Assembly: GCA_030649345.1 (NCBI GenBank)
Contig: JAUSKK010000003.1
Location: 1 to 20,596, forward strand
From: Candidatus Iainarchaeum sp.
GTDB taxonomy: Archaea > Iainarchaeota > Iainarchaeia > Iainarchaeales > 0-14-0-20-34-12
Direction of reading: 5' to 3'
Length of the DNA stretch: 20,596 bases
A program made the translations under genes and the position numbers. Positions 5,804 through 20,596 of this stretch are shown here, in pieces. How positions within the stretch are numbered: position 1 is the first letter of the stretch; the number at the start of each line of letters is the position of its first letter. The notes beneath the pieces were generated by a model. The model was not told where the DNA came from. It saw only the letters and a list, made by a program, of their open reading frames with translations, and ran no database searches.

Positions 5804-6340
5804 ATGCCTGGAGATAGACTTATTCGAAGACATGAACGCAGACCTATGGGCCCGGGCGTTTCTTCTCAGAACATGCCTTCAGGAATGCCTTCTTTTGAAC
5901 CGACCGATCGCCAAAAACCAGAAGTAGTTATTTCTTTAATGAAAAACGATATCCGTGCTTTGAATAGTGCTATTGCAATTATTTCTCAAAAAATGAAACA
6001 CTTAATTCGAAATGAAAAAATCTTAGGCCGAAATTTAGTTGTATTAAATAAAAAACTCCAGCAAGGAGTTTATTCCAAAGGCCCTGAAGGATCCTCTGGA
6101 TCTTCTTCGGAAGACCTTCAAGCTTTAACTGTTCAACTGGAAAAACAAAACCAAGAAATTCAATCTTTATCTAATCTAATGGCTGAACTGCGTACTTCGC
6201 TGGCTTCCCGCGAAGAAGTCTTGGAATTACGTCATGTAATTGATTCCATTAATCCTTTAGAATTTACGACCCGCGATGATGTCAAAGAATTAATTGCATT
6301 GGCTTTCGAAAAGAAAAAAACAATTGCTAAAGAAAAATAA
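5804..6340 (+). CDS. Hypothetical coiled-coil protein with a disordered basic/Pro-rich N-terminus
   Basis: 178-aa ORF with an ATG start. The N-terminal ~40 aa are low complexity (RRHERRPMGPGVSSQNMPSGMPS), followed by heptad-like helices (LQALTVQLEKQNQEIQSLSNLMAELRTSLASREEVLELR). No family recognised. Confidence 0.6.
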   Translation: MPGDRLIRRHERRPMGPGVSSQNMPSGMPSFEPTDRQKPEVVISLMKNDIRALNSAIAIISQKMKHLIRNEKILGRNLVVLNKKLQQGVYSKGPEGSSGSSSEDLQALTVQLEKQNQEIQSLSNLMAELRTSLASREEVLELRHVIDSINPLEFTTRDDVKELIALAFEKKKTIAKEK

Positions 6341-6360: not shown

Positions 6361-7878
6361 TTAAATGTCAATTATTTCAACCAAGTTTTCTGTTTCACTG
6401 CTTAAGCTTGGGCGAATAAAACAACGATAACTTTTTTGTCCTTGAATTTGAATGGCTGCATCGTTTTCTTTCACCAAGGATACAATCGCACTTGTTTTGG
6501 TTTTTGCTTGTTCTGAAATTTCGTTTTCATTTTCTGCTTCCAAAATAACTCCTTTGTTTTTGCTTTGCAGTTTTCCCAAACTGTCTTGGATGGCTTGCAA
6601 GGTTGTGCTGAACTGTTCACTGGAAAGAATGTGTTCTGCTTTCGGTAAAACGATTACCAAGTCACTGGTTTCTTTTCCGCTTTCATATAATTCCAGCAAT
6701 TCTTTAAGTATGCTTTCAATAATCAAACTGTTTTTTCGGTAATCTTTGGATCGCAAACTAATAATATTGGCGCGGCCCAATGTTTTATGTGCTGCCTTTA
6801 AAATTTCGGAGACATTATTTCCATCGCCTAATATTTCTGGATATACTTGGTCTATGACTCGAAGCATTCGCACCATTCTTTGTTTGTTAAAATCACTGAA
6901 TGTTTCTGTAGTCGGCATTTTTTCAGCATTTGAAATTAATTCAGTCATGGACGTAAACTTTTTTTGATTTAGCAAGTTCACTATTTCTTTTTTGATTTTT
7001 TCATTTTCTATTCCAAACAATTCTGCAAAACCTAAGCCATCTATTTTTCCTAAATTAATTCGAATGTCTTTAATGATTTCGAATGTTTTGGTTGGAAACC
7101 CTAAAGGTTCTAAATCTACTTTGTATTTTTCAAGTTTTTTCCGGTCTTTGCTTGGATTTCCTAAACCGGAAAATTCGCTTTCAAATTCAAAAGCAATGAC
7201 TGGAATGCGGGACAACAATGCACTTTCAGTTAATACGCGCAAGGCATGAATTCTATTTTTTCGTTCTCCACCGACTACCAAGGCTGACTTAAAATAAGCA
7301 AACGGTTCTTTGATTCCTGTGCCTTCTTTGGTGATTCCAATAATTGTTTCTCCTATGCTGATTGTTTTTTCGACTATGCTTTTTTCAACATGAATGGTTT
7401 GCTTGGCTGTAAAAATTAAATGAATCAATGGAGTAGAATAAAACAATTCTTTTTCTTCACTGCTGCATTCTTTTAATTTTTTTAATTCAACTTCAAAAGC
7501 TATGCTGCTTTCTTGAATGGCTTTTCCGCGTTCTTCTAGTCTTTGAATCATTTCTTGCACTTCTTGATTAATCGCTGATTCATTGTACGAAACATAACTG
7601 GCTGTAGTGCTGAACATTAAATATTTTTCAACTTTTTCTCCTTTTACAATTAAACCTAAAGCTTTTCCTTTTTGTCCTTCCAGCAATCGTTCTAAATCTC
7701 CTTGAACAGAATACACCAAAAAACATTCCATTAATACGCCTAGCTTTTTTCCTTTTTCTTCATCATTGACTAAAGAAAGAATGAATTCTTCATTGCTGGA
7801 CAATAATTCTGAAAAATGTCCTTCCAATTGTCCGGAAAAAATGTTTTTCCACGGGCCTTGTGCTAGTTTAAAATCCAT
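6361..7878 (-). CDS. HerA/DUF87-like P-loop-fold protein with degenerate Walker A/B motifs (predicted catalytically inactive); tentative
   Basis: 505-aa ORF. 'ALVVGGERKNRIHALRVLTESALLSRIPVIAFEFESEF' has the strand / P-loop / helix / strand-'DxxGEY' layout of HerA/FtsK-type ATPases, but GxxGxGK[ST] is replaced by GGERKNR. 'LVIVLPKAEHIL' sits where Walker B (hhhhDEAH) would be, without the acidic pair. No canonical GK[ST] occurs anywhere in the protein. Confidence 0.4.
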   Translation of the reverse strand: MDFKLAQGPWKNIFSGQLEGHFSELLSSNEEFILSLVNDEEKGKKLGVLMECFLVYSVQGDLERLLEGQKGKALGLIVKGEKVEKYLMFSTTASYVSYNESAINQEVQEMIQRLEERGKAIQESSIAFEVELKKLKECSSEEKELFYSTPLIHLIFTAKQTIHVEKSIVEKTISIGETIIGITKEGTGIKEPFAYFKSALVVGGERKNRIHALRVLTESALLSRIPVIAFEFESEFSGLGNPSKDRKKLEKYKVDLEPLGFPTKTFEIIKDIRINLGKIDGLGFAELFGIENEKIKKEIVNLLNQKKFTSMTELISNAEKMPTTETFSDFNKQRMVRMLRVIDQVYPEILGDGNNVSEILKAAHKTLGRANIISLRSKDYRKNSLIIESILKELLELYESGKETSDLVIVLPKAEHILSSEQFSTTLQAIQDSLGKLQSKNKGVILEAENENEISEQAKTKTSAIVSLVKENDAAIQIQGQKSYRCFIRPSLSSETENLVEIIDI

Positions 7879-8052: not shown

Positions 8053-8601
8053 TTGGTTGTTATGCCAGTAAACGAAAAAATTGTCTTGGATACCATTAAG
8101 CAAATGAAAGAAGCCGGCTTAGAGGATTCCGTCATTTTAGCTACTTTAAAAGACATTGGCTTAACTGACTTGGAATCCAAGGAATTTTTAGCCAAAGCCA
8201 CCGGCAAATCAGAACCTTCGGTTCCGATACCTCCCACTAAAACTTTCAGCAAATCCGAAGAACCTAAAGAAGAATCTTTGGAAACCGAAGAAGAACCTAG
8301 TAAAGAAGATTCTGATCTCGACGATGAAGCACAAGAAGACGATTTAGACGATACTGCGCATGCAGTTACTCATGTAGCTTTGCAAGCACAAGGCCAAAAA
8401 TTGGATGACTTGCATGAAAAAGTTTCTGGTTTAGAAAAACCGCTTGAATTGACTCAAATTTTAGCAGAACTTCAATCCATTCGAAGAGACTTACAAGAAC
8501 TCAAAAAACAAGTCTCTGAATCCAAAGCCTTAAATGCAGCCACCCAAGACGTTATGGAAAAAGTTTTAGATGTGAATCGAAAGATTTTGAATAAACAGTA
8601 G
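8053..8601 (+). CDS. Hypothetical acidic coiled-coil protein
   Basis: 182-aa ORF as tracked, which starts at TTG 8053; the ATG at 8062 (MPVNEKIV...) is the more likely start. It has a small helical N-domain, a very acidic Glu/Asp/Ser linker (EEPKEESLETEEEPSKEDSDLDDEAQEDDLDD) and a C-terminal coiled coil (ILAELQSIRRDLQELKKQVSE). Confidence 0.65.
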   Translation: MVVMPVNEKIVLDTIKQMKEAGLEDSVILATLKDIGLTDLESKEFLAKATGKSEPSVPIPPTKTFSKSEEPKEESLETEEEPSKEDSDLDDEAQEDDLDDTAHAVTHVALQAQGQKLDDLHEKVSGLEKPLELTQILAELQSIRRDLQELKKQVSESKALNAATQDVMEKVLDVNRKILNKQ

Positions 8602-8857: not shown

Positions 8858-9520
8858 TTAAATGGCATGAATATTTTCCTTTTGGACTTCGCCTTTGTTT
8901 TCTTTTTTGCTTTTATGATCTTTGCTTTTTTCTTTATGACTGCTTGTGTCTTCTTTTTTGTCTTTATGCCCATGACTTCCTCCGCCCCCGCCAACTTTTC
9001 CAAATAATCCAAAAAAGCGATTAATAAATTCTTGAGTACCTTGAGATACTCTGGTCAAAATCGGCCGCGTTCTATATCCGCCTTTATTGAATACAATTTC
9101 TGAAGTTTTGTCTGCAATATTGCTGGACATGTCTTGAATGACTCCTATTCCAGGCGGTGTTGGATTTGCTTGTTCTACATCTTCTGCAATTCCTTGAATT
9201 AATTCTTGAGTTGTACTTTTCATTCCATTAACTACTTGCAGAATGCAAATTACTCCCAACAATAACATAAATGAATGCAAAGTAATCCAGCCATAGGCTG
9301 CATCCCAATAGGTTGGCACAATCATGGTGGCATAACCAATCAAAGTCAGCCAAGATAAACCGCCCCAAATAATTAAAATTATAAAAATAAAAAAGAATTT
9401 AATTTCCAATTCTTTGAACACAAATGCATTAATGTAAATTAAAATAAATAAAAGCCATGGACGCCACCAAATCATTTGGTCTTTCCATGGAATATTTTTG
9501 GTCTGATAAGCTTTACTCAT
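8858..9520 (-). CDS. Polytopic membrane protein (~4 TM) with a soluble C-terminal region and a Gly5 plus His/Lys-rich tail
   Basis: 220-aa ORF, the last gene of the co-oriented cassette. Hydrophobic helices include WLLFILIYINAFVF, FFFIFIILIIWGGLSWLTLIGY and ITLHSFMLLLGVICILQVV. The tail reads 'GGGGGSHGHKDKKEDTSSHKEKSKDHKSKKENKGE'. Confidence 0.65.
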   Translation of the reverse strand: MSKAYQTKNIPWKDQMIWWRPWLLFILIYINAFVFKELEIKFFFIFIILIIWGGLSWLTLIGYATMIVPTYWDAAYGWITLHSFMLLLGVICILQVVNGMKSTTQELIQGIAEDVEQANPTPPGIGVIQDMSSNIADKTSEIVFNKGGYRTRPILTRVSQGTQEFINRFFGLFGKVGGGGGSHGHKDKKEDTSSHKEKSKDHKSKKENKGEVQKENIHAI

Positions 9521-9544
9521 AATAGCATCCTTGTTTTGAATGAA

Positions 9545-9862
9545 TTAAAATCCACCCATTCCGCCGCCCATCATGCCCATGTCGCCGCCGGGCGCATACA
9601 TATCCGGCTCTTGTTCTTTGGCTTTAACTCCCAACAATAATGCTAAAATCATTAATCCAAATAAAATAAACGGCCAAAATTCATCAATGGAATTTCGGCT
9701 GACAAAAAACAAAACCAATGCAACCAACAATACAATCGTTGCCGACAAATTACGCAATCCTACAATTAACAAAATAATGGTTCCAAAAATTAGCCAATTT
9801 TGTCCAGTTTGCAAAGACAAGCCAACTAAAATAACTGCAATCAATAAAGTAAATGGATCCAT
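9545..9862 (-). CDS. Small 3-4 TM membrane protein with a Gly/Met-rich C-terminal tail
   Basis: 105-aa ORF, almost entirely hydrophobic helices, ending 'PDMYAPGGDMGMMGGGMGGF'. It lies 24 nt upstream of the next gene on the same strand. Confidence 0.65.
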   Translation of the reverse strand: MDPFTLLIAVILVGLSLQTGQNWLIFGTIILLIVGLRNLSATIVLLVALVLFFVSRNSIDEFWPFILFGLMILALLLGVKAKEQEPDMYAPGGDMGMMGGGMGGF

Positions 9863-9885
9863 ATTTTTTCATCTCCGTGTTAATA

Positions 9886-10146
9886 TTAATCTCTTAAGTG
9901 GTCTTCTCCGCCTACATCAGGGCCTGGCATTTTTTCTACAATATTTTTTCCAAAAAATGAAATCAAAAATAAAATTACTGGAATCCAGATAAGAATTGGG
10001 TGAGTAAAGAATCCTAAATAGGTAATAATGACTGCAAACAAAATAGCTAACTTAGCACTGCCCAATTGATTTTTAGCCCAGCCATAAACCCATACCAAAT
10101 AAAATAAAGAAAGAATAGTCTGCAAATCCGACCATAAATCAGCCAT
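9886..10146 (-). CDS. Small membrane protein (2-3 TM), paralog family 'AK-N-x-L-G-S-A'
   Basis: 86-aa ORF. The motif 'WAKNQLGSAKLAILFAVIITY' aligns with 'FVKNHVGTGPLGLAIMIGISW' (130-aa protein) and 'TVKGYLGSGMIPLLLSAILIY' (110-aa protein). Confidence 0.6.
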   Translation of the reverse strand: MADLWSDLQTILSLFYLVWVYGWAKNQLGSAKLAILFAVIITYLGFFTHPILIWIPVILFLISFFGKNIVEKMPGPDVGGEDHLRD

Positions 10147-10227
10147 AGGTTTTCACTCTATAAATAATACCTTTCTCTGAGTTTAAATACGTATGGCACG
10201 GTGTTGATTGCGCTTTCGCTTGTTTAA

Positions 10228-10560
10228 TTAATGTCTTTTGGTAACCATCATGGCAATGTTTAATCCCCAGATAATTACAGACAAGAAGTTGAATGCCAAT
10301 AGCACGTAAAAGAATACAAATATGCTGGTGGTTAAAAATGCATGTTTGATGACCAGTAAATAAATAAGTATTGCACTTAAAAGCAATGGAATCATTCCAC
10401 TGCCTAAATATCCTTTGACTGTAGAGTATAGCGTGAAAATTAAAATTAAGCGCATAATAATGTCTGCAGCTGGAAAAAACATCATAATCAAAGGAGGAAT
10501 GGCGGCCACTACAATAAAGCCTAACAATGCAAAAATAAACAAATTTCCTTTTGAATTCAT
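10228..10560 (-). CDS. Small membrane protein (~4 TM), same paralog family
   Basis: 110-aa ORF only 4 nt downstream of the 130-aa gene. It shares the 'VKGYLGSG' loop motif followed by a TM helix. Confidence 0.65.
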   Translation of the reverse strand: MNSKGNLFIFALLGFIVVAAIPPLIMMFFPAADIIMRLILIFTLYSTVKGYLGSGMIPLLLSAILIYLLVIKHAFLTTSIFVFFYVLLAFNFLSVIIWGLNIAMMVTKRH

Positions 10561-10564
10561 AATA

Positions 10565-10957
10565 TTACCTTAACATTCTTCCTCTGGCATGTGCTTGATG
10601 CATGGCGTGTTGTCTGGCTCTGTTTCGTTCAGCTACATCGGCTTGAGTTCCTTTGGGTGCTTCCATTCCATGCGGGGTAATGTGTTGTTGTCCCACAAAA
10701 AAGAAATCAATCAAGATTCCAGAAACTCCCATGGTTAATAGAGTGTACAATACGTATACTCCTCCAAAGAAAGACCAGGCATCGAATAAAATAAACCAAG
10801 AAATTCCAATCATAATGGCTAAACCTAAAGGCCCTGTTCCTACATGATTTTTTACAAACGAAATAATACTCAATAAAGCAAATATTTTCAAAGCCAAATT
10901 ATAGTCTTGGAATATTTCAGTAAAAAATAATGCAGTTAAAAAACTAAATTCAAACAT
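10565..10957 (-). CDS. Small membrane protein (3 TM) with a His/Arg-rich C-terminal tail, same paralog family
   Basis: 130-aa ORF 44 nt downstream of the giant gene. It carries the motif 'VKNHVGTG'. The tail reads 'HITPHGMEAPKGTQADVAERNRARQHAMHQAHARGRMLR'. Confidence 0.65.
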   Translation of the reverse strand: MFEFSFLTALFFTEIFQDYNLALKIFALLSIISFVKNHVGTGPLGLAIMIGISWFILFDAWSFFGGVYVLYTLLTMGVSGILIDFFFVGQQHITPHGMEAPKGTQADVAERNRARQHAMHQAHARGRMLR

Positions 10958-11001: not shown

Positions 11002-12363
11002 TTATTCTGCAATGCACTTGAATTCAGAGTTATCTGGGGCAGTATTCATGGTTTGTTCTAATGCAGTAATTCGTGCCTGATCGTATACTTTCTTTTCATC
11101 CCAGTAAAACAAGATTTTGGTTCCGTCATTAATCATGCACATTTCACCAGTTTGCACCAATTCAAACACTTGGCTAATAGATCCAATTTGAGTTGTTCGA
11201 TTGGCTAAACTCAAAGGTTGGTCTTGGAATCCAGTATGTCCTGCGTTCAATACTTTGGGTTTATTGTTTCCTTCTCCTTGAGTTCTAAAACTATACGTTT
11301 CATTAAACGGAGTATAGACTACTGTTTTTAAGAAAACATTTCCTGTTTTGTCAATCTGGGGCCATTCTTGATAATATGTATTACTTGCTGGGTCTCTAGA
11401 ATCTTGAGTATTATTGAATACATTGGATACTGAAATTCCAGTAAAATCCAAACATCTTCCAGCACCAGTCCAGTAAGTTAACACATTTCCAATATTTTGA
11501 ATTTGATTTCCTGAATCCATTAATTGATAATTGGCTCTATAAGGATCATCGCTTGTTTCAGTTTGATTCATTTTTAATAAAATAGCGTGCGGGTTGTTGG
11601 GTGTAAATTGTATTCTGGCCTGCGTTCCATCTTCGTTTCTTTCAATCTCCATTACTTTTCCTCTATTTTCTATAATATCATTATTCATTTTTTGCAAGCT
11701 TTCTTCTTGCTTTACTTTAAAAGTAACCAGTGGATTGCTGGAATTAATGGGTGTAGTTTTTAAAGTTTCAATATCCCCTGTGCCTGCAATAACATAAATT
11801 TCTTGTCCTTCATTTTCGTAATTCACTCCATATCCTTGTCTTCCATCAGCGCTATTCAATCCAACTTTTCCATCAAATGGCAAATAATAAAATGGGTGAT
11901 CGGGTACAGGATTTTGTATTCTGTCAAATACTGCATTTATGTTTACATTGCTGGCTCCGTTTCTGAAAAATTTCCATTCTTTGTTTCCAAAATCTATTTC
12001 CAAGTTTACTTTATATTTTCCAGGCACTCCAATATTGCTGGTGTCTGTGTATTTTCCTTTGAATTTGAATACTGTTGAATCTCCAAATATTTCTTTTAAT
12101 CCATCTTCGCTTTGCTTAAACCAATCTGGCGTATCTATCACACTATCCAATCCATAGGTTTCCACAAAGTCGGATTGGAAGTCTGTATTGGGATTGTCTT
12201 TCATTAACAAGGCTTCAAACGAAACAGTTTTATTTAAAGTTTGAATATCTGGAATTTCATTTGTCCACTGAACAGTACTTGAGTTAACTGCAAATACTGA
12301 AATTATTGGAACACCTGCAGCTTCTTTGGTAGTGTAAGGCAAAATACATTCTTCGGCTATTCC
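11002..12363 (-). other. Conserved C-terminal module (~450 aa) shared with the paralog at 19132-20596
   Basis: Collinear matches, giant vs paralog. ECILPYTTK / DCEPYTTT. FEALLMKDNPNTDFQSDF / FNAFLMEDGYSEDFRADF. PGKYKVNLEIDF / AGKYKVTLKVTY. DHPFYYLPFDGKVGLNSADGRQGYGVNYENE / DSPFYYMPFDGLLGKDTPNGRQGYGVNFREQ. RCLDFTG / RCKDFTG. GNVFLKTVVYTP / GDLYLGTVFFTP. ISQVFELVQTGEMCM / IQKVIQLVKEGQVCV. The C-termini are KCIAE / LCITD. Confidence 0.8.
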
Positions 12364-15300
12364 TGATTCTCCTTCGATTTGGAATATTTGGCTGGCACTT
12401 CGATTGTTTGCAATTCCTGGCGTAGATTCTTTAACTCCTGCTCCAAAAGCATACACTTTTCCTGGACTTAAATTATAAAAAGTAGTATTTGAAGTTAGAG
12501 TTCCATTGGCTGGCACAGTAATTGGAACTATTGCACTTTGATCTCTGGATCTATCTTGTAATGTAATAGCTGAAAATTGAATTTGTGCTGTTTGTGCTTG
12601 GGTTGTTTTATTTTCCACAGTTGCAGTTATAACTGCCGTTGTTTCCGTGATTTGGGTTTCCACTATTTTGACTCCAATATTTCCAACAGCTATTTCTAAA
12701 TTATTGGGCTGAGCTCCAGCTGCAGCATCTGCAATGGCTCCAGTTATTGGATTGGCTGGACAATTTAAGCTAGTTTCATTTTGTTCCAAAAATGTTTTTA
12801 ATGCATTCATTTTTTTGTTAACCATGATCGCAAATTGAGTTGCATCACAATATACTGCATTTTCATTACTGGCATCACAAGTATTGGCTTCAATTGCAGT
12901 ATTTCCAGTCCAAGTCCAATCAAACTTTACTTTAGGCATACTCGCATTTGTTCCAGTGTCTCCTTGAATTACTCCACGCATACAAGTTTCAGTATCTCTA
13001 AAGCTTGGTCTTTCTGCTGGCTTGGGTTTGGTGGCTAATTTTATGTGGTATTTGACTTCGCGTTCTTTAGTTATTCTTCCAGAACAATCTCCATTGCTGA
13101 AACTAACTTTTCCAGCAGCAAATTCTTGAGGTGTAATTTCATCTGCAAATGCTTCTTCGTCATTTTCGTCTTCTTCACAATATAAGTCATATTCTCCTTG
13201 TGCTTCTGGGCTGTGGGCTAAATCTCCAGCATAAATTCGTTCAGCGTATTTTAATTTTAATATTCCAAATTCATCTTTTACTGAACTAACTCCAGTTGTG
13301 TTGGTGATCTTTAATGCACTTCCGGTTTCAGCTCCATCTTGTTTTAAGTCAATTTCTTTTCTTCCTAATGAAACTGGAATATTGGCAATATCCCATTCAG
13401 AATTGCTTAGTTCTGTAAAGGTATGTTCTGTTAAGTCACTATTATCTAAATTCCCAGAACCGATTTGTGTAACTGGAACAATTCTGGCCATAGTCACAAA
13501 TTCCTCTTCACAATCTGGCCACATTATGATTGTTATAACCAATGCAGATGTTGCTAATATTCCTGCAGCCACCCAGCCAGCTACTGGAATTGTTGCAACT
13601 GTTGCAGCTAAATATAAAATTGGCACTGCAAAAGCTGCCGCTCCAGCACCAGCTCCAACACCTACGCCAATCCAATTTTCATTTTCTTCATCAATATGGT
13701 CTGCTACGCATTTATTAGTTTGAATAGTCACTCGTTCGAAAATATTTTTATTGGTTAAAATTGCAGTATCTTGTGCTTGCGGTCCAATGATTTGGAATGC
13801 GTAATTGCTTAAAGTAATTTGTTCCGAAGAATTGGGTTGAACTTTGACATCCAGTCTTTTAATTTCTTGCCCTGGCCCGGATTCAATAGAACTTTTGGCT
13901 TTAATGGGGATAGTATAAACTCCAGCCAAGTCTCTTCTTTCTACAACAACTTCACTTTCTGCACTTGCTCCAGTTCCAAATAATGTAACTCTTTGATTTT
14001 GCGGGCTGGCAATGGCAATTCTTCCTTCTGAAGTTCCACCGGAACAACCTGGATCATTTTTGCAAAAGTCTAAAGTAATTCTAGCCTGTGCACAATCTGG
14101 AACCAAAGAAACTTTGAATCTTATTTCTTCGGTGTCTGAAGCAATCTCTGGATTGGTTGTATCAATATTAATGCATTGTTCTAAATTCACAATATATGCT
14201 TTGACTGTAATATTTTCTGGAGTGCTTCCAATCAATGGTTGTTCTGCATTTGTTTCTGGATTACTAATAAATCCTTTAATGGTAATGGTGAATCCAACTT
14301 TTTGTCCAATAAATTCTGCATTCGGTCTAAAGCCTAATTGCAAAGAATAATCTTGATCTGTTCGAATTTTTTCCAACAAAGTATTGGTTTGTCCATTGCG
14401 TAAAGGAATAATTGATCCTTCAGAATTCGGGCCAGTCATAGTTAAAGTGGCTGTTCCTCCAGCTGTTGGTCCTTCAGTCCAATTCAATGTAACTTTTAAT
14501 CCATCCAATTCTACAGGCACATCATTGAGTGTACAATTGTTTGTTAGTTTGAACTCTGTAACTTCTTCAATATCTTTGGTTACAATATCCCATACTGGAA
14601 TCTTGTTTCCGTTTAAAACAATACAACCGCTTGCAGGTCTTCCAGCAAACTGTACAGATCCTTGCACTGGAATTTGGAAAGCATAAGCATTATTCACTCC
14701 ATCTAAGAAAGCCAAACCAGTTAATTGAGTAGTAAATGTTTCTGTACTTTCTTGCATTCGCATTTCAGCGTCTCTAGTTAAAGCAGCCAAAGCAGTAAAG
14801 TTTTGAGTTCCATCCACTGAAATGATTTGCAATGCTTCATCTTGACTTTGAGTTTCCAGTAAAGCCTGCATTCTTCCGGTATCAAATATTCCGGGTGTTG
14901 CTCTTTGAATTTCTCCAAATCTTAAATTTTGAATTCGAATATTTGCTCCAGCTCGGTTATGCAAACTAAACGTTTGAGATTCGTCTGTTCGAGTTCTAGT
15001 ATTCAAGTTCATGAATTGAATTTCTTCCGGCAAAAAATCTACCACATTGGTATCTGTATTCAAAACTAATTCGCCTTCCACATATCCTTCTTTGATGGCT
15101 GAAACAATGACTTGAGCATTCGGAGGCAATCCAGGAATAGTGAATAAAACTTGTCCAGTTAAATTTGGATTCGTTCCAGATATTTGAGTTCCGTTTGAAA
15201 TTAATGTAGGATTTAATTCTCCGGGTAATAATGTTCTAACTTCTACTCGTACTCCATCTAAATTAAATTCTCTGGTTTGTTCTGAACTTCCTCTAGTTTG

Positions 15301-18225
15301 AGGTTCAATTCCTTTAATTTGTAATTGCAATTGTGTATCCGAATACGCCGGCAATACTTCTCCTAAAGGTGCAATTTTTTCAATGCTTAATTCTTTTTCA
15401 GACAAAACTCTTAATGCAATAATTTTTTCAAATACAATTTGATCATTTCCAAATAAAGTAATTTTTAAAGTTGTAGCTTTGGCTTTCACTGGTTTAAAAG
15501 AAAGCATTCCTTGAATTTGTTTATTGATGGTGAATTCACCCAATGCACTGGCAGTCACACTTTTTTTATCCGAAGAATTAATTCTGCTGTCTTGTCCATC
15601 TGCATTCACTAACTCTAAAGAACCTACTTCTAAAACTGATTGGTTTTGATTATTGATTTCTTCTACCAATAATCGCATGTTTTCATATTCTGTTCTGGAA
15701 ACATTTCTTAAATTAAATTTTAAATTATAGTTTGAAAAATTTCTTACATTATATCCTTGGGTTACTGGAAAAATTAAGTCTGCTCCAATCCCTGGAATAT
15801 ATCCTTTGAGTTGTTCTCCGCTCCAGCAAAAATTATTGGTTGTAGAATCACAAGCAGAATCTTCGCCTTCTTTGAATTGTGCAGTATATGTTTGAGCATA
15901 AGGTTCATTCACCAATTCAGCAGCACTCGGAGCTAAAGCTAAAACATTATCTAAAGGATCTCTTAAATACGAATTACTGGTATTGGCTCCCCATGCTCTA
16001 TAAAATAAATCTAAATTTTCCAATTCAGCTTCAGCATTTACATGAATTCCTATCCCTACACTGTATTCAATAGGTTCTACATCTATCCAGGAAATATTCA
16101 CCCATTTGGCATTGCTTAAAGTTTCAGTTTCTCCATCCCAGCCAGTATTTTGATTGTAGGTAGTGTATCTTTTTACAATTGGATTTCCGCCTGCATTAAT
16201 TTTGTCAAAAATAACATACAAAGCATCATTCTCAATTCTGTCTGTGTTTCCTACTCTAAAATGAATTCCTCCATTCCGCAAATCTTGTCCTGCTGGATAC
16301 GTTACTTTGAGTCTTGCTTCATAATTCTGTCCAGCCAATAATTGGGTTACACTTTCTTGTCCGAATTCATCAAAAATTCCTTCCAACACAATTTCAGGTC
16401 CTCTTTGATCTCCTTTTCCAAAAAACTGTGGTTTCATTACTCCAGTAACAGCATATTCTTCTTCTGCCCATAAATCAATCACTTGACTTTGCCAAGTCAT
16501 ATAATCTGGATGAGAAATTCGAACATAAATTTTAGTATCTGCTTTTACTTCAATTGAATCTTCGCCTGTAACCAAAGGTCTTTCTCCTTGCAATACACTT
16601 CTTCCATTCCAAGTAAACACTTCATATTTGGCTCGGCCATCATTAATGGTTAAATTGTCTTCAAATTTGACTGCTCGAATATTCAAACCAGCTGTTCCTA
16701 CCTGCATGGTCACCGTAAATTCATTAATAGTTTCCAATTTGATTTCTTTAGAATCTGCTGCAGTTCCTCCTTGAGATCTGCTTTTGACTGCAAAAGCAAA
16801 TACTTCTTCAGTTAAGCTTCCTAAAATAAATTCAACATTTCCATTGACATCAGTAACTTTTTGATTATCTACAGCACTTGCATCACTGACTTCAACTATA
16901 GCTCCATTGCTTTTTTTTCTAAACATGACTCGTGCATTTACAACTTTATCATTGGCTTCGTCTTGGACATGCACTTTAGTTTTTCCTGAATTTAAAGAAG
17001 TAATTTTATCCAAGCGTAAAGTTAAATCTGCGTTAGCATTGGTTGTACTTATTTCTGCGGGAAAATATCCTTCATTGACTCCCCCAATTTTTTTAGCACC
17101 AATCAAGTATTCTTTTTGATCTGTAATTGGAAATTCTACTTGAGTTTGAGTAGCAGTAATTGTTTTTTCGCTTAACACAGTTCCTTCTCTTGCATCCTTG
17201 AGTACAACTATGGCTCCAATCACATTGCTTTGATTGGCTTTATCTAAAACTCTTACTTTGATTCTGCCCAATAAATTTTTGCTAACCCTTAATTCTACTG
17301 GAGTTCTTTGCCCTGAATTAACTTGAATTCCTTCTACATTGCTTGAACCATATTTGTCGGTTGTATCTTCTACACTTACAGTATATCTTCCGGGTGCTAT
17401 TTCCATTCGCACAGTTCCATATTCGCCGGTAGTTTCTGAATAATTTTCTCCAGTTGTTTTCTGTGCTCTGACTGTAAAGCTTGTATCTGTAACTAAATTT
17501 CCAGAACCATCGAGTACACTTACATCGATAAATCCATTGGGTACTGTTCGTTCTTGTAAATTAATTATTTTTTCAGTTTCAGTTTCAGAAAAATTTGCAT
17601 TGCTTTCTTCAAAATCATCGCTGTTCACTTGAACACTTAAATTTCCGCAATTCAATGGAGTTTCAATTTCCATGACTCCATCTTGATCTTCATCACTGGC
17701 TCTGAATGGCGCAATCGTTGTATTGGAACACGAAAAAGTTGCTTGAATATTTTTTCCAGTAATGAGTCCTTGAGAATCCTGGAACAAAATGCTTTTGGTT
17801 CTGGTTTCTAAAAATTTTTCCAAAATTGCAATCGTTTGCGTTAAATCAGTTTCTCCGATTGCAAAATCTTGCTCAAATAGCTGAAATTGTTTTCCGTCTA
17901 ATTCCATTTCATTAATTTTAATTTTAATAATAGAATTGGCTTTGGCTGCCAATACAATTTTTCCAGCTGAATCTGTGTGTCCTTGTTTCCAGTCCCCAGC
18001 CAAAGAAGTATAACTGACTTCCACATTATTTAATGGATTTCCTGTGCTGGTGGTAACTGTAAAAATAGCTTTAACTTGTGCTCCAGTTTCTCCGCTTAAA
18101 TTGGCATTGGGTAATACAAAAAAGTAAACCAAGGCTGCTAAAACAATTAAGCCCAAGACTGCCAATGCTTTCTTGTTTTGAGTTAACTTAGAAAGACTAT
18201 CTGCCAGAGTTTCAGCAAATCCCAT
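11002..18225 (-). CDS. Giant (2407-aa) membrane-anchored, Cys- and sequon-rich surface protein; no characterised family recognised
   Basis: An uninterrupted 7.2-kb ORF in AT-rich DNA is very unlikely by chance. It has an N-terminal anchor (KKALAVLGLIVLAALVYFFVLP), tandem beta-sandwich repeats and many N-x-S/T sequons. An internal double hydrophobic segment spans aa ~1518-1569, and the C-terminal module is shared with the neighbouring paralog. Confidence 0.9.
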   Translation of the reverse strand: MGFAETLADSLSKLTQNKKALAVLGLIVLAALVYFFVLPNANLSGETGAQVKAIFTVTTSTGNPLNNVEVSYTSLAGDWKQGHTDSAGKIVLAAKANSIIKIKINEMELDGKQFQLFEQDFAIGETDLTQTIAILEKFLETRTKSILFQDSQGLITGKNIQATFSCSNTTIAPFRASDEDQDGVMEIETPLNCGNLSVQVNSDDFEESNANFSETETEKIINLQERTVPNGFIDVSVLDGSGNLVTDTSFTVRAQKTTGENYSETTGEYGTVRMEIAPGRYTVSVEDTTDKYGSSNVEGIQVNSGQRTPVELRVSKNLLGRIKVRVLDKANQSNVIGAIVVLKDAREGTVLSEKTITATQTQVEFPITDQKEYLIGAKKIGGVNEGYFPAEISTTNANADLTLRLDKITSLNSGKTKVHVQDEANDKVVNARVMFRKKSNGAIVEVSDASAVDNQKVTDVNGNVEFILGSLTEEVFAFAVKSRSQGGTAADSKEIKLETINEFTVTMQVGTAGLNIRAVKFEDNLTINDGRAKYEVFTWNGRSVLQGERPLVTGEDSIEVKADTKIYVRISHPDYMTWQSQVIDLWAEEEYAVTGVMKPQFFGKGDQRGPEIVLEGIFDEFGQESVTQLLAGQNYEARLKVTYPAGQDLRNGGIHFRVGNTDRIENDALYVIFDKINAGGNPIVKRYTTYNQNTGWDGETETLSNAKWVNISWIDVEPIEYSVGIGIHVNAEAELENLDLFYRAWGANTSNSYLRDPLDNVLALAPSAAELVNEPYAQTYTAQFKEGEDSACDSTTNNFCWSGEQLKGYIPGIGADLIFPVTQGYNVRNFSNYNLKFNLRNVSRTEYENMRLLVEEINNQNQSVLEVGSLELVNADGQDSRINSSDKKSVTASALGEFTINKQIQGMLSFKPVKAKATTLKITLFGNDQIVFEKIIALRVLSEKELSIEKIAPLGEVLPAYSDTQLQLQIKGIEPQTRGSSEQTREFNLDGVRVEVRTLLPGELNPTLISNGTQISGTNPNLTGQVLFTIPGLPPNAQVIVSAIKEGYVEGELVLNTDTNVVDFLPEEIQFMNLNTRTRTDESQTFSLHNRAGANIRIQNLRFGEIQRATPGIFDTGRMQALLETQSQDEALQIISVDGTQNFTALAALTRDAEMRMQESTETFTTQLTGLAFLDGVNNAYAFQIPVQGSVQFAGRPASGCIVLNGNKIPVWDIVTKDIEEVTEFKLTNNCTLNDVPVELDGLKVTLNWTEGPTAGGTATLTMTGPNSEGSIIPLRNGQTNTLLEKIRTDQDYSLQLGFRPNAEFIGQKVGFTITIKGFISNPETNAEQPLIGSTPENITVKAYIVNLEQCINIDTTNPEIASDTEEIRFKVSLVPDCAQARITLDFCKNDPGCSGGTSEGRIAIASPQNQRVTLFGTGASAESEVVVERRDLAGVYTIPIKAKSSIESGPGQEIKRLDVKVQPNSSEQITLSNYAFQIIGPQAQDTAILTNKNIFERVTIQTNKCVADHIDEENENWIGVGVGAGAGAAAFAVPILYLAATVATIPVAGWVAAGILATSALVITIIMWPDCEEEFVTMARIVPVTQIGSGNLDNSDLTEHTFTELSNSEWDIANIPVSLGRKEIDLKQDGAETGSALKITNTTGVSSVKDEFGILKLKYAERIYAGDLAHSPEAQGEYDLYCEEDENDEEAFADEITPQEFAAGKVSFSNGDCSGRITKEREVKYHIKLATKPKPAERPSFRDTETCMRGVIQGDTGTNASMPKVKFDWTWTGNTAIEANTCDASNENAVYCDATQFAIMVNKKMNALKTFLEQNETSLNCPANPITGAIADAAAGAQPNNLEIAVGNIGVKIVETQITETTAVITATVENKTTQAQTAQIQFSAITLQDRSRDQSAIVPITVPANGTLTSNTTFYNLSPGKVYAFGAGVKESTPGIANNRSASQIFQIEGESGIAEECILPYTTKEAAGVPIISVFAVNSSTVQWTNEIPDIQTLNKTVSFEALLMKDNPNTDFQSDFVETYGLDSVIDTPDWFKQSEDGLKEIFGDSTVFKFKGKYTDTSNIGVPGKYKVNLEIDFGNKEWKFFRNGASNVNINAVFDRIQNPVPDHPFYYLPFDGKVGLNSADGRQGYGVNYENEGQEIYVIAGTGDIETLKTTPINSSNPLVTFKVKQEESLQKMNNDIIENRGKVMEIERNEDGTQARIQFTPNNPHAILLKMNQTETSDDPYRANYQLMDSGNQIQNIGNVLTYWTGAGRCLDFTGISVSNVFNNTQDSRDPASNTYYQEWPQIDKTGNVFLKTVVYTPFNETYSFRTQGEGNNKPKVLNAGHTGFQDQPLSLANRTTQIGSISQVFELVQTGEMCMINDGTKILFYWDEKKVYDQARITALEQTMNTAPDNSEFKCIAE
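13519..13677 (-). other. Internal Gly/Ala-rich double hydrophobic segment (predicted TM hairpin) splitting the giant protein into ~1470-aa and ~840-aa parts
   Basis: aa ~1517-1569 read 'NWIGVGVGAGAGAAAFAVPILYLAATVATIPVAGWVAAGILATSALVITIIMW'. That is two ~22-aa hydrophobic stretches joined by a very short 'TIP' turn. Acidic residues flank both sides (DEENEN / PDCEEEF). Confidence 0.6.
16429..18078 (-). other. Tandem beta-sandwich repeats (carboxypeptidase-regulatory-like / Ig-like), about 5-6 copies (giant protein aa ~50-599)
   Basis: Recurrent ~90-aa units have the typical pattern 'v.V.d..g.pl.nA.V.......g...tTd..G...f.l..G.Y.v.v'. Examples are 'GFIDVSVLDGSGNLVTDTSFTVRAQ...GEYGTVRMEIAPGRYTVSVED', 'GRIKVRVLDKANQSNVIGAIVVLKD' and 'GKTKVHVQDEANDKVVNARVMF...TDVNGNVEF'. 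Confidence 0.6.
18109..18174 (-). other. N-terminal signal-anchor of the giant protein, fitting a loose class III (archaeal type IV pilin-like) signal-peptide pattern
   Basis: '...TQNKKA|LAVLGLIVLAALVYFFVLP': basic residues, then Ala, then a ~20-aa hydrophobic stretch. 'KALAVL' fits the pattern [KRDE][GA][ALIFQMVED][ILMVTAS]x3. Confidence 0.35.
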
Positions 18226-18431: not shown

Positions 18432-18752
18432 TTGGATATGTCCAAGACTTCAAAACAAAGACTGACAGTCCAGACAATTCTTCAATTGCTTGAAAAAAAT
18501 AAATCCTCTTTTGCATCATTGGGTGTGGAAAAGCTTGGTTTGTTTGGTTCTGTTTTGCATAATCAGCAAAAGTCTGATAGTGATCTGGATTTTTTGGTTT
18601 CGTTTAATCATCCTACTTTTGACAATTATATGAACTTAAAGTTTTCTTTGGAGAAACTTTTTCATCGAAAAATAGATCTGGTTACTGAAAAAAGTCTTAA
18701 GCCATCGCTGAGTTATATTAAACAGGAAGTTCAATATGTCTCATTCACCTAA
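18432..18752 (+). CDS. mntA: Minimal nucleotidyltransferase (MNT), MntA-like antitoxin
   Basis: ~105-aa ORF. The tracked start is TTG 18432, and the ATG at 18438 is more likely. It has the hallmark '[21 protein letters not shown]' (GS-x9-11-DxD pol-beta-type NTase motif). It overlaps the downstream HEPN gene by 17 nt. Confidence 0.8.
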
Positions 18753-19077
18753 GCTTTACTTACAAGATATTTTAGAGTCCATTTCTAAGATCGAGTCTTA
18801 TTCTAAAAATTTATCCAAAGAAAAGTTTGCAGACAATTCTTTGGTGAAAGATGCCGTTGTTCGAAATTTGGAAATTATTGGAGAAGCCGTTAAACAACTT
18901 CCAGTAGAACTAAAGGAAAAGCATTCTGAAATTGACTGGAAAAAGATTGCAGGCTTGCGAGATATTTTAATTCATGCTTATTTTGGAATTGATGTTGACA
19001 TTCTTTGGGATATTGTTCAAAACAAGCTTCCGGAATTAAAAAAAGCTGTTCAGGAAATGAAGGCTGATTTAAAATAA
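18736..19077 (+). CDS. hepT: HEPN-domain (DUF86/HepT-like) toxin
   Basis: 113-aa ORF with the R-x4-H-x-Y motif '[12 protein letters not shown]' in the expected C-terminal third. It is translationally coupled to the MNT gene. Confidence 0.8.
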
Positions 19078-19131: not shown

Positions 19132-20596
19132 TTAGTCTGTAATACACAATTCAGCCAAGTCTTCTCTGGAAACTGTAGCTAATTCTTGTACCAATGCTCT
19201 ATAACCTACTCCGCCGGTTAAAGTAGTTCCTTCGGTTCCAGTTATTCCTTCTGTTCCTGCCAATATGGCTGCTGGATTCCAGAAGAATCTTGCATTTGCA
19301 CTATTGCCGACTCCTTCTACACAAACTTGTCCTTCTTTAACCAATTGAATTACTTTTTGGATGGATTTAATTTGTTCAGATGGGAAGTCTCCGCCAATAG
19401 CTAATTGTTCTGTGACTTCTGTATTGCTTGCATTACTTCCTTGTTTAATAAATTGAGTTCCATCGTCTTGTGCGTCCACCAATCTTAATGTTCCGGCTGT
19501 TCCTTCTTGGGGTGTAAAGAATACTGTTCCTAAGTATAAGTCTCCTGCTTTTTTGATGTCACAGAATTCTAAACCATAATGGCTTGTGCTTAATCCTGCA
19601 CCTGAACATTTAGTGACTCCAACTCCAGCATGCAAGTCTGGACTGTCTCTGTAAGCTGTAGCTGAATCTCTTCCTGTAAAGTCTTTACATCTTAAAGCAA
19701 TGGAATTCCAGTAAGCAATATTTTCTCCAGTTAACTGCGGTTCTCCGTTTAAGGTTAAACTATAATATGCAAATGCTTTGTCTGATTTTCCGCCAGCAAT
19801 TTTTAATACTACTGGAGTTGCTTTGCTGGGACTAAATATTACATTGATTTGTTGTTGAGCTGGTCTTCGTTCTACATTCAATACTAAACCTCGGGTTGAT
19901 TGATCTGTATTTAATTTTTTGAAATCATTTTCTACACTGGTCAAAACCCATCCATTCGGAATTGGATTACTGTTGGCAATTGTGCTGGATAAAATAGTTT
20001 CAGCTAAATCACTAGGCTCATTGAATGTAATGCTTTCAATACTTTGTTCTCTGAAGTTTACTCCATATCCTTGTCTTCCATTGGGTGTATCTTTTCCTAA
20101 TAATCCATCGAATGGCATGTAATAAAATGGACTGTCTGGATCAGGTGCTTGCAGTCTTTCTAAGATTACTTCAATGACTGCTTTGCTGTCTGCTTCTGTT
20201 CCATTTAATCCTAAACTCCAAGGCTTGCTTTTATCGTACGTTACTTTGAGTGTAACTTTATATTTTCCTGCTCTAATTGGTGCATTGGGTGCCTCTAAGA
20301 ATGGACTGACAAATTTGAATTTGTTAGGGTTCGCAAAGTAATTGTTTAATAAATTTCTAAAGTCTGCTTGGCTTGGGAAATCAAAGAATGATTTGGTTAA
20401 AGCATAATCAATAAAGTCTGCTCTAAAGTCTTCACTGTAACCATCTTCCATTAAAAATGCATTAAAGCTGGTTAATTCTGTTGCTTTATTGAAAGCGTCT
20501 CTAGCTTGTCCATTTCCTTCATTGGCTTGCGCGAACTGGGTTAATCTTGTTGTAGTGTAAGGTTCACAGTCTGTGCTGGTAACTCCTGCATTTCCT
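19132..20596 (-). CDS. Second giant surface-protein paralog; only the C-terminal ~488 aa are in the window (5' end beyond the window edge)
   Basis: The frame stays open from the tracked Met (20451) to nt 20596. My translation of 20452-20595 is ...GNAGVTSTDCEPYTTTRLTQFAQANEGNGQARDAFNKATELTSFNAFL, followed by MEDGY... These extra residues still align with the 2407-aa protein, so the Met at 20451 is internal. Confidence 0.8.
   Translation of the reverse strand, partial: GNAGVTSTDCEPYTTTRLTQFAQANEGNGQARDAFNKATELTSFNAFLMEDGYSEDFRADFIDYALTKSFFDFPSQADFRNLLNNYFANPNKFKFVSPFLEAPNAPIRAGKYKVTLKVTYDKSKPWSLGLNGTEADSKAVIEVILERLQAPDPDSPFYYMPFDGLLGKDTPNGRQGYGVNFREQSIESITFNEPSDLAETILSSTIANSNPIPNGWVLTSVENDFKKLNTDQSTRGLVLNVERRPAQQQINVIFSPSKATPVVLKIAGGKSDKAFAYYSLTLNGEPQLTGENIAYWNSIALRCKDFTGRDSATAYRDSPDLHAGVGVTKCSGAGLSTSHYGLEFCDIKKAGDLYLGTVFFTPQEGTAGTLRLVDAQDDGTQFIKQGSNASNTEVTEQLAIGGDFPSEQIKSIQKVIQLVKEGQVCVEGVGNSANARFFWNPAAILAGTEGITGTEGTTLTGGVGYRALVQELATVSREDLAELCITD

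Follow-up and report, generated by a model that had tools for sequence, protein, structure and literature searches.

A cysteine-bracketed glycine-zipper loop in a giant Iainarchaeota protein and its possible role as a membrane hairpin anchor

We analyzed a hydrophobic segment in the middle of a giant protein encoded by Candidatus Iainarchaeum sp., on a 20,596-nucleotide stretch of contig JAUSKK010000003.1 (assembly GCA_030649345.1) that is referred to here as the window. The segment (13519-13677, minus strand; residues 1517-1569 of a 2407-residue open reading frame; translation NWIGVGVGAGAGAAAFAVPILYLAATVATIPVAGWVAAGILATSALVITIIMW) is statistically distinct from the remainder of the protein, recurs at a conserved position among relatives, consists of two unequal arms and lies within a pair of co-varying cysteines, and the gene that encodes it belongs to a conserved genomic module. 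We favor, with moderate confidence, the interpretation that the segment is a glycine-zipper-type hairpin embedded, either spanning or re-entrant, in the cell's own membrane, that it is probably clamped by a disulfide and that large ectodomains lie on both sides of it. From the observations just listed we infer the membrane insertion, the topology, the disulfide and the identity of the membrane. An apolar helical hairpin or glycine zipper in a membrane is a kind of element that is already known; new are the Cys-bracketed variable loop between huge ectodomain blocks, the protein family that carries it and the Iainarchaeota-specific module of giant proteins and small membrane proteins.

The hydrophobic segment and its flanks

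The features of the giant protein that bear on this interpretation are as follows.

11002-18225, minus strand: giant open reading frame of 2407 residues, a single uninterrupted reading frame
18091-18177, minus strand: N-terminal signal-anchor (residues 17-45, NKKALAVLGLIVLAALVYFFVLPNANLSG), with its N-terminus predicted to be inside
13696-14028, minus strand: immunoglobulin-like (Ig-like) β-sandwich (residues 1400-1510), ending in a conserved V-x-V-x-A-x-x-C-x-W strand right before the loop
13708-13710, minus strand: Cys1506 (Cys1, the first putative clamp cysteine)
13588-13674, minus strand: arm 1 (residues 1518-1546, WIGVGVGAGAGAAAFAVPILYLAATVATI), Gly/Ala-rich, with a glycine-zipper motif and marginal hydrophobicity
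13576-13587, minus strand: turn PVAG (residues 1547-1550), read from the sequence and free of charged residues
13519-13575, minus strand: arm 2 (residues 1551-1569, WVAAGILATSALVITIIMW), of transmembrane-grade hydrophobicity, with Trp at both ends
13510-13512, minus strand: Cys1572 (Cys2, the second putative clamp cysteine), inside the acidic exit WPDCEEE
11005-13008, minus strand: conserved C-terminal module (residues 1740-2407), predicted to be extracytoplasmic

On the Kyte-Doolittle (KD) scale, the 19-residue mean of the protein exceeds 1.4 at two places only, residues 14-45 and residues 1518-1572: the maximum is 2.91 in the N-terminal segment and 2.06 and 1.94 in the internal one, and the next best window elsewhere reaches 1.39. 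Sums on the Hessa biological hydrophobicity scale were -3.9 for the N-terminal transmembrane segment, -0.56 for residues 1551-1569 and +2.2 for residues 1528-1546, and all other windows lay above +8. Shuffling the residues of the protein showed that a single arm is unremarkable for its composition, as a 19-residue window of 2.06 was met by 489 of 2000 shuffles; the 50-residue stretch, with a KD mean of 1.88 versus a shuffle mean of 0.92 (standard deviation 0.19, maximum 1.86), was met by 0 of 2000. Its core of ∼50 residues holds no charged residue, and both arms are long enough (at least about 18 residues) to span a bilayer. The zipper of arm 1, GxxxGxxxG at residues 1520-1530 (GVGVGAGAG, GVGAGAGAA), fits the pattern (G/A/S)xxxGxxxG in an apolar helix, and the density of small-xxx-small pairs is 0.21 in the segment compared with 0.04 in the remaining protein, a five-fold difference.

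A reading made earlier from the sequence alone, referred to below as the sequence-only reading, had given its translation, had placed it ∼1500 residues from the N-terminal anchor and had described both of its flanks as rich in cysteines and sequons. The translation and the position are correct, the anchor occupying residues 17-45. The stretch before the segment contains 11 Cys and 20 N-x-S/T sequons and the stretch after it contains 11 Cys and 15 sequons. Cys1506 stands 11 residues ahead of the segment, and Cys1572 stands 3 residues past its end. An antisense open reading frame with a GTG start (141 residues; 13298-13723, plus strand) overlaps the hairpin; as conservation is seen for the minus-strand frame, we regard this antisense frame as spurious.

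For structure prediction with AlphaFold, a first run on residues 1208-2407 with 6 sequences gave a predicted local distance difference test (pLDDT) score of 21-31 around the hairpin and was discarded; the run that we used covered residues 1380-1860 with a 24-sequence alignment and had a mean pLDDT of 62. In this run, model residues 1-125, which correspond to the β-sandwich ahead of the segment, were all β (pLDDT 70-91), and they were followed by helices at residues 1505-1515, 1525-1543 and 1551-1567 (pLDDT 32-69) and then by further β domains. Burial of the segment as a core strand, which the sequence-only reading had considered, was hence not predicted; helices between β-sandwiches were predicted instead, at low confidence at that place.

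The loop across the protein family

A word-indexed protein search returned only 4-5 true relatives of the giant protein, and when its C-terminal 1200 residues were searched exhaustively against cluster representatives, 494 were returned at E ≤ 1e-3, including 238 at E ≤ 1e-30, most of which are 2200-2700 residues long. The chief matched region was the C-terminal module, in which there are invariant Cys columns (including C1748, C1783 and C1793) and the motifs YCDATQF and FYYLPFDG. A hydrophobic segment at the N-terminus was found in nearly all full-length relatives. Using as anchors the β-sandwich of residues 1400-1510 (by jackhmmer) and the conserved module from about residue 1740, we took the intervening region from 116 family proteins and then, after addition of genome loci, from 235 sequences. 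P0002-P0004, at 24-31% identity, have a hydrophobic segment at the equivalent place, and this recurrence indicates that the segment is not an artefact of assembly or reading frame.

Conservation in relatives was a point on which the sequence-only reading had made a functional role depend, and the segment is indeed conserved among them as a feature: composition and architecture of the loop are kept, and the sequence itself is not. In the short-linker subfamily, which includes the window protein, the loop is entered through ...V-x-V-x-A-x-x-C-x-W-(E/D)-(E/x)-A and about 10-15 polar residues, continues as a Gly/Ala-rich helix, a Gly/Pro turn and a strongly aliphatic helix, and is left through (E/D)-(D)-P-C-(D/E), followed by L-x-D-Y-V-I-N-L. 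The loops range in length from 19 to over 100 residues, and their Gly plus Ala content is 30% versus 15% in the whole proteins. More than 30 residues lie in hydrophobic stretches in 67 of 80 non-redundant Cys-closed short loops, which are distributed as follows.

31-60 residues in hydrophobic stretches: 56 loops
more than 60 residues: 11 loops
12-30 residues: 8 loops
fewer than 12 residues: 5 loops

In 67 relatives compared arm by arm, hydrophobicity is systematically higher in the C-terminal arm (mean KD 1.89) than in the N-terminal arm (1.01; Wilcoxon p 5e-11). In the relatives inspected, C[PG]xC, which 13 of the 80 loops contain, sits where the turn leads into the second hydrophobic arm; CPxC or CxPC at the turn is found in P0016, P0039, P0043, P0047, P0061, P0057, P0077, P0054, P0064, P0148, P0030 and several loci, and the window protein has PVAG at this place. 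If the hairpin spans the membrane, the turn motif would face the cytoplasm, with metal binding, redox activity or a helix cap as candidate roles. About half of the family (for example L001:882-9053, L003:155-8260, P0018, P0051 and P0125) consists of long-linker paralogs, in which both Gly-rich helices are present.

The two cysteines that bracket the loop are kept and lost together. Among 89 non-redundant short-loop relatives, both are present in 81, neither is present in 6, Cys1 alone in 2 and Cys2 alone in 0, so that Cys1 is kept in 83 of the 89; their co-occurrence gave a Fisher p of 5e-8 in a test that ignores phylogeny. Clean loss of both with retention of the hydrophobic hairpin was seen in P0046, P0053 and P0076, and the number of cysteines inside the loop is even (zero included) in 68 of 80 loops. 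Joint retention and loss is what would be expected of a disulfide, which would put both ends of the loop on the same side of the membrane; judging from this pattern, a disulfide between Cys1506 and Cys1572 probably closes the base of the hairpin. An acidic residue lies at most 2 residues before Cys2 in 66 of 80 relatives, with DPC at the loop exit in 32 of 80, and the entry side of relatives is also acidic (DWEEA...). By the positive-inside rule, the acidic entry and exit suit a non-cytoplasmic place for both ends.

The window also encodes a 589-residue protein of DsbA/thioredoxin fold (1455-3224, minus strand; Thioredoxin_4, E 1.5e-24) that, by eye, seems to begin with a signal peptide. It is extended at the N-terminus by a long β-rich region, contains a Thr/Pro-rich linker and ends in a helical tail. 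No synteny of its gene with the giants is seen at other loci. By its fold, this protein could supply extracytoplasmic disulfide formation.

In two shorter relatives of ∼985 residues, P0139 and P0158, the C-terminal module is preceded by a classical signal peptide at the start of the protein, that of P0139 being followed by DDNPC. These signal peptides support an extracytoplasmic location of the C-terminal module. As two cases, and on the assumption that the genes are complete, they also hint that genes were split or fused near the hairpin, arm 2 being akin to a former signal sequence. A shared, non-cytoplasmic side for the two flanks is hence suggested by four kinds of indirect evidence, namely the acidic flanks, the co-varying cysteines, the conserved cysteines and sequons and the signal peptides of the two shorter relatives. 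Together with the two arms, their Pro/Gly turn and the predicted insertion competence of arm 2, this evidence makes a hairpin or re-entrant anchor tethering two ectodomains the best supported of the options that the sequence-only reading had put forward.

In such an arrangement, residues 1-16 would be cytoplasmic, a first transmembrane span would occupy residues ∼20-41 and ectodomain 1, from residue ∼46 to ∼1516, would consist of Ig-like or prealbumin-like β-sandwiches where this is checkable. Arm 1 would then enter the membrane, the charge-free PVAG turn would follow, arm 2 would return to the outside and residues 1573-2407 would form ectodomain 2. During export, arm 1 would act as a weak stop-transfer sequence, aided in its insertion by arm 2. 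The latter would be taken up by the Sec translocon, and with it export would resume for the C-terminal 840 residues. Cys1506 and Cys1572 would lie just outside the arms, where their disulfide would staple the base of the hairpin, and the two arms could pack tightly through their small-xxx-small faces, which might also serve for packing with other copies or with co-encoded small membrane proteins. The protein would thereby be tied to its own membrane twice, at the N-terminus and at residues ∼1520-1570.

The family as a whole resembles little that is annotated. No Pfam domain was matched above threshold anywhere in the window protein (the best was CarboxypepD_reg, at 22.9 bits versus a cutoff of 32.3), and the whole protein had no match in NCBIfam or among PDB sequences. 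CarboxypepD_reg/prealbumin-like β-sandwich domains were detected in the N-terminal region of several relatives, and a family profile searched against the PDB matched generic Ig-like domains only, the best being 8qox_B (E 3.6e-5 over 80 residues). Where the sources give the giant relatives a name, it is "hypothetical protein," and the searchable literature on giant proteins of DPANN archaea and Iainarchaeota yielded nothing on the family, the placement of the hairpin or the gene module. Two identities were tried and rejected. A type IV pilin-like N-terminal signal (K-A-L-A motif) was set aside on inspection, as the motif is not conserved among relatives. An alpha-2-macroglobulin identity, raised by weak matches of relatives to macroglobulin (MG) domains, was rejected for want of a thioester motif: CxEQ is absent from the window protein, and C[GLAS]EQ occurs in just 8 of 280 family sequences. 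The MG-domain matches reflect generic β-sandwiches.

A scan of one genome per species returned 228 stretches that encode the family. Among the titles that name a lineage, nearly all are Candidatus Iainarchaeum or Diapherotrites, and the matches include Ca. Iainarchaeum andersonii, the complete genome CP064981.1 and the complete genome CP010424.1 (AR10, titled "archaeon"); many of the 228 are titled just "archaeon" or "uncultured archaeon." Two matches are labelled Thaumarchaeota and Chloroflexi, which may be binning errors.

Gene neighborhood of the giants

The surroundings of the giant gene in the window are made up chiefly of the following features.

8858-10957, minus strand: five small polytopic membrane proteins, directly downstream of the giant gene
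10565-10957, 10228-10560 and 9886-10146, minus strand: three of the small membrane open reading frames, mutual paralogs
9545-9862 (∼105 residues) and 8858-9520 (220 residues), minus strand: the other two small membrane open reading frames
19132-20596, minus strand: C-terminal end of a second tandem giant (a 439-residue open reading frame at 19132-20451), with the frame open to the window end

Giant genes occur as 2-3 tandem paralogs per locus, and in dozens of Iainarchaeota loci the gene order runs from the giants to three small paralogs, a ∼105-residue protein and a relative, 65-170 residues long, of the 220-residue protein. In a second type of locus, the giants are accompanied by two larger relatives of ∼190 and ∼125 residues. 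The small-membrane-protein family was found in Diapherotrites-type records only, and 118 of its 119 matches lack a Pfam domain. Judged by this gene order, the small proteins are candidate membrane partners of the giants. The ∼105-residue protein (9545-9862; also L001 18532-18870 and L003 24927-25268) has a conserved Gly/Met-rich C-terminal tail, …PGGDMGMMGGGMGGF.

The second giant of the window is 30% identical to residues 2002-2380 of the complete one (E 3e-41). For its 439-residue open reading frame we also weighed a cytoplasmic version of the C-terminal domain that lacks a signal sequence, and rejected this, as the frame is the end of the second giant gene. Between the two giants, on the opposite strand, lie a nucleotidyltransferase gene (18432-18752, plus strand; Polbeta/NTP_transf_2, E 3e-11) and a gene for a HepT-like RNase (18736-19077, plus strand; E 3e-32), the open reading frames of which overlap by a few codons; by its domains, this pair (18432-19077) looks like an MNT/HEPN toxin-antitoxin system. 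The equivalent gap between the giants of L001 holds two different small genes, likewise on the opposite strand.

Further along the window, a 505-residue soluble protein (6361-7878, minus strand) without a significant Pfam match shows a faint likeness to TrbE/VirB4, toward the C-terminus of the latter (NCBIfam, E 0.063), and by eye resembles a HerA/FtsK-type fold with a degenerate Walker A motif (ALVVGGERKNR). Its gene and those of two coiled-coil-like proteins (8053-8601 and 5804-6340, both plus strand) are syntenic with the giants in 30-37 loci, and polB is syntenic with the giant cluster in 27. As the synteny reaches as far as polB, the linkage may merely reflect conserved gene order. A type IV secretion or Ced-like system, suggested by the small membrane proteins and by the likeness of the 505-residue protein to a degenerate P-loop ATPase, was dropped as a candidate for the same reason, the TrbE match at E 0.063 being its sole support.

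Competing explanations and known systems

Several observations weigh against a membrane hairpin anchor or limit how far it can be extended to the family. The two lowest classes of the 80 short loops are among them: in 5 loops, hydrophobic stretches account for fewer than 12 residues, those inspected being short and Trp-rich, and 8 loops hold 12-30 such residues, which are too few for two spans; some relatives have one stretch of 24-30 residues, again not long enough for two spans. At ∼14 of 40 loci, the giants evaluated lack a transmembrane-grade hairpin. In the long-linker paralogs, the two helices are separated by an insert of ∼200-500 residues that has 2.4 Cys per 100 residues versus 1.2 (up to 48 Cys in 479 residues in the extreme case), more acidic than basic residues and sequons at the family-average density. 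By this composition the insert looks extracellular, and if it is, the helices that flank it are not ordinary membrane spans. The element may therefore be interfacial or monotopic across the family, and the common denominator may be a Cys-bracketed loop with membrane affinity, of which the transmembrane hairpin of the window protein is a strong version. Within the window protein itself, arm 1 alone is marginal for insertion (Hessa sum of +2.2), the turn has no positive charge and the pLDDT over the hairpin is low (32-69), with the helices taken from the predicted secondary structure. For the cysteines, the disregard of phylogeny in the Fisher test is a further reservation, and several calls are probably mistakes in motif detection (P0151 and L045 among those scored as having Cys1 only; P0116, P0153 and L063 among those scored as having neither).

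The explanation nearest to an anchor puts protein-protein packing first: the zipper faces would bundle the hairpins of paralogs or dock them onto the small membrane proteins, giving an oligomeric platform, ring or channel. This overlaps and is compatible with an anchor, and as the primary role we consider it possible but unlikely. The GxxxGxxxG motif and the five-fold density of small-xxx-small pairs favor it, as do the weak resemblance of relatives' loops to the Pfam glycine-zipper, Mic10 and Romo1 families, the presence of 2-5 small polytopic membrane proteins invariably after the 2-3 tandem giant paralogs and the joint occurrence, at many loci, of one giant that has the hairpin and another that has a long linker or no hairpin. 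However, the hairpin is conserved in composition only, whereas specific interfaces usually leave conserved positions, and gene order is conserved out to polB, so that the synteny may in part be conserved genome order.

Insertion into another cell's membrane, which the sequence-only reading had raised from the likeness of the segment to fusion peptides, would require a deployable loop that is exported, shielded at rest and inserted into a partner or host membrane on contact; we judge this rather improbable. The composition and a possibly disulfide-closed loop do bear out that likeness: the loop is probably closed in this way and is Gly/Ala-rich, or Trp-rich in some relatives, an arrangement also found in GP2 of filoviruses and arenaviruses, at its internal fusion loop. 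Hairpin-less relatives, P0062 and P0017 among them, retain both cysteines around a short aromatic loop (for example CFWGKDGKLDWWGDIWDDWDC), with a Trp+Phe+Tyr content of 20-32% versus 9% family-wide, and the best 11-mers of such loops have favorable Wimley-White interfacial energies of -3.3 to -6.2 kcal/mol. A phage P22 gp7 ejection-protein model was matched by the loops of 3 of 40 relatives, and glycine-zipper segments act as membrane-depolarizing toxins in effectors of type VII secretion systems (PMC12744356, PMC12955049). The near confinement of the family to one DPANN lineage also counts in favor. Cultivated DPANN archaea depend on contact with host cells, which bears on the window protein if Iainarchaeota, too, have hosts. 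No heptad repeat or coiled coil adjoins the loop, since the AlphaFold secondary structure has β strands on both sides, and Foldseek searches with the model of residues 1380-1860 (mean pLDDT 62) against the PDB and the BFVD viral models returned no fusion-protein or toxin match, nor any other, at E ≤ 1e-3, only generic Ig-like matches, and nothing like the three-domain β fold of class II/III fusogens or fusexins (HAP2/Fsx1-like); a fusion-protein fold was therefore dropped. Loop lengths of 19 to more than 100 are unlike the constrained loops of fusion proteins, and arm 2 is transmembrane-grade, on account of which the translocon of the producing cell should hold it back during export. A broader version, in which the giants and small membrane proteins form an Iainarchaeota-specific surface machine whose deployable Cys-clamped loop attaches to, opens a channel in or fuses a partner or host membrane, seems to us decidedly doubtful; such a contact apparatus would be unrelated in fold to known fusogens.

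Proteolytic processing, the remaining option of the sequence-only reading, would make arm 2 an internal signal peptide or would place a cleavage at an Asp-Pro bond, leaving two subunits joined by the Cys1-Cys2 disulfide. Asp-Pro bonds do serve some self-processing modules, a disulfide across a cleavage site links the chains of AB toxins and viral glycoproteins, and in the family a Gly followed by an acidic residue and then Cys, like the c-region of a signal peptide, is found in 32 of 80 relatives (for example LFGEDPC), as is DPC (32 of 80), and the two shorter C-terminal-module relatives have signal peptides of their own. The window protein, however, reads ...ITIIMW-PDCEEE at this junction, with Trp at -1, no small residues at -1/-3 and no Asp-Pro, so that neither mechanism fits and a processing site in it is unlikely; moreover, the motif is not universal among relatives, and the loop with its Cys pair persists in relatives without any hydrophobic arm. 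We regard processing as very improbable. Burial of the two helices as the core of a soluble domain or oligomeric stalk appears just as hard to sustain and is, in our estimate, highly unlikely: the neighboring β-sandwiches leave no room for two helices of ∼20 residues, a charge-free core of ∼50 residues of which arm 2 scores as a transmembrane segment would have to be accommodated, the extreme variability in length and sequence is unlike a folded core and the element is absent from some relatives that keep both adjacent domains. What speaks for burial is that AlphaFold confidence is low at the hairpin in a prediction read as secondary structure, that the Gly-rich helices of the long-linker paralogs are less hydrophobic and surround an extracellular-looking insert and that the paralog P0078 has Asp and Glu within its helices. 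Overall, a hairpin in the cell's own membrane remains the interpretation that we favor.

Iainarchaeota (Diapherotrites) are uncultivated DPANN archaea, and nothing in the literature searched describes their cell envelope. A module that is conserved in their genomes and specific to the phylum comprises 2-3 tandem genes for proteins of ∼2300-2700 residues followed by small polytopic membrane proteins, all of which are unnamed or "hypothetical protein" in the records examined, and the design of the giants is unusual in that an N-terminal anchor is combined with an internal Cys-bracketed glycine-zipper loop between two ectodomain blocks. If the loop is an anchor, two-point attachment to the membrane would turn each giant into a large arch and would set limits on envelope models of either an S-layer-like or a fibrous type; a loop directed at other cells would instead represent a new kind of device for contact or fusion. 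In either case, the loop is a short, synthesizable and mutable experimental handle and a clear annotation marker for the giant family.

Compared with known systems, the giants are, like archaeal S-layer stalk and anchor proteins, membrane-anchored surface proteins built of β-sandwiches. The likeness to 8qox_B ("Conserved membrane protein," 475 residues), which we take to be SlaB of Sulfolobus, is confined to one generic Ig-like domain, and SlaB differs from the giant in having a single C-terminal anchor and a coiled coil and no internal hairpin. GP2 of filoviruses and arenaviruses has an internal fusion loop between two disulfide-forming cysteines (PMC6926192, PMC10831964). The window element shares with such loops an internal position, hydrophobicity, a Gly/Ala-rich composition and two flanking cysteines; unlike them, it is much longer and more hydrophobic (∼50 apolar residues and one transmembrane-grade arm), its disulfide is one that we infer, and the window protein has no adjacent heptad repeats, fold similarity or visible cleavage-priming site. 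By the features tested, the element belongs to no class of fusion protein. Helical hairpins of polytopic membrane proteins pair a weak first helix with a strong second one across a Pro/Gly turn, with non-cytoplasmic ends, as is predicted for the window hairpin, and in Sec-dependent insertion a marginal helix can rely on a strongly hydrophobic partner helix. Unlike these, the window hairpin lies outside any helical bundle, splits β-rich ectodomains of ∼1470 and 840 residues and has a turn without positive charge.

Mic10, of the mitochondrial contact site and cristae organizing system (MICOS), and Romo1 are also glycine-rich membrane hairpins, which oligomerize through their glycine motifs; SlyB-type hairpins, too, oligomerize in membranes. 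Relatives' loops match the Mic10 family DUF543 (1 member, E 0.01) and Romo1 (3 members, best E 0.3) weakly. The two proteins differ in being eukaryotic, stand-alone small mitochondrial proteins, and the window loop has no match to either, which leaves no evidence of homology. Closest in function and composition are the hairpins of bacterial glycine-zipper lipoproteins (PF05433, SlyB/Pcp and the Rickettsia 17-kDa antigen; PF13488, Gly-zipper_Omp; PF13441, Gly-zipper_YMGG), of which SlyB has been described as a glycine zipper 2TM protein (bioRxiv 10.64898/2026.06.08.730324) and YfgH in a similar way (bioRxiv 10.64898/2025.12.22.696046). Among 40 loops of relatives searched against Pfam at E ≤ 1, 8 matched Gly-zipper_Omp, 7 matched Gly-zipper_YMGG (best E 7.8e-6), 4 matched the glycine zipper 2TM domain and 3 matched PF13436; neither the window protein nor its loop alone matched PF05433, PF13488, PF13441 or PF13436 at E ≤ 1. 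From the sequences, the matches of relatives may be compositional rather than a sign of common descent. The window hairpin is unlike the lipoproteins in belonging to an archaeal host with a single membrane, in being internal to a 2407-residue protein and in having an aliphatic, transmembrane-grade second arm and a conserved bracketing Cys pair; what it has in common with them is a pair of short apolar helices, rich in Gly and Ala, with a tight turn between them, the pattern (G/A/S)xxxGxxxG and a place in a surface protein.

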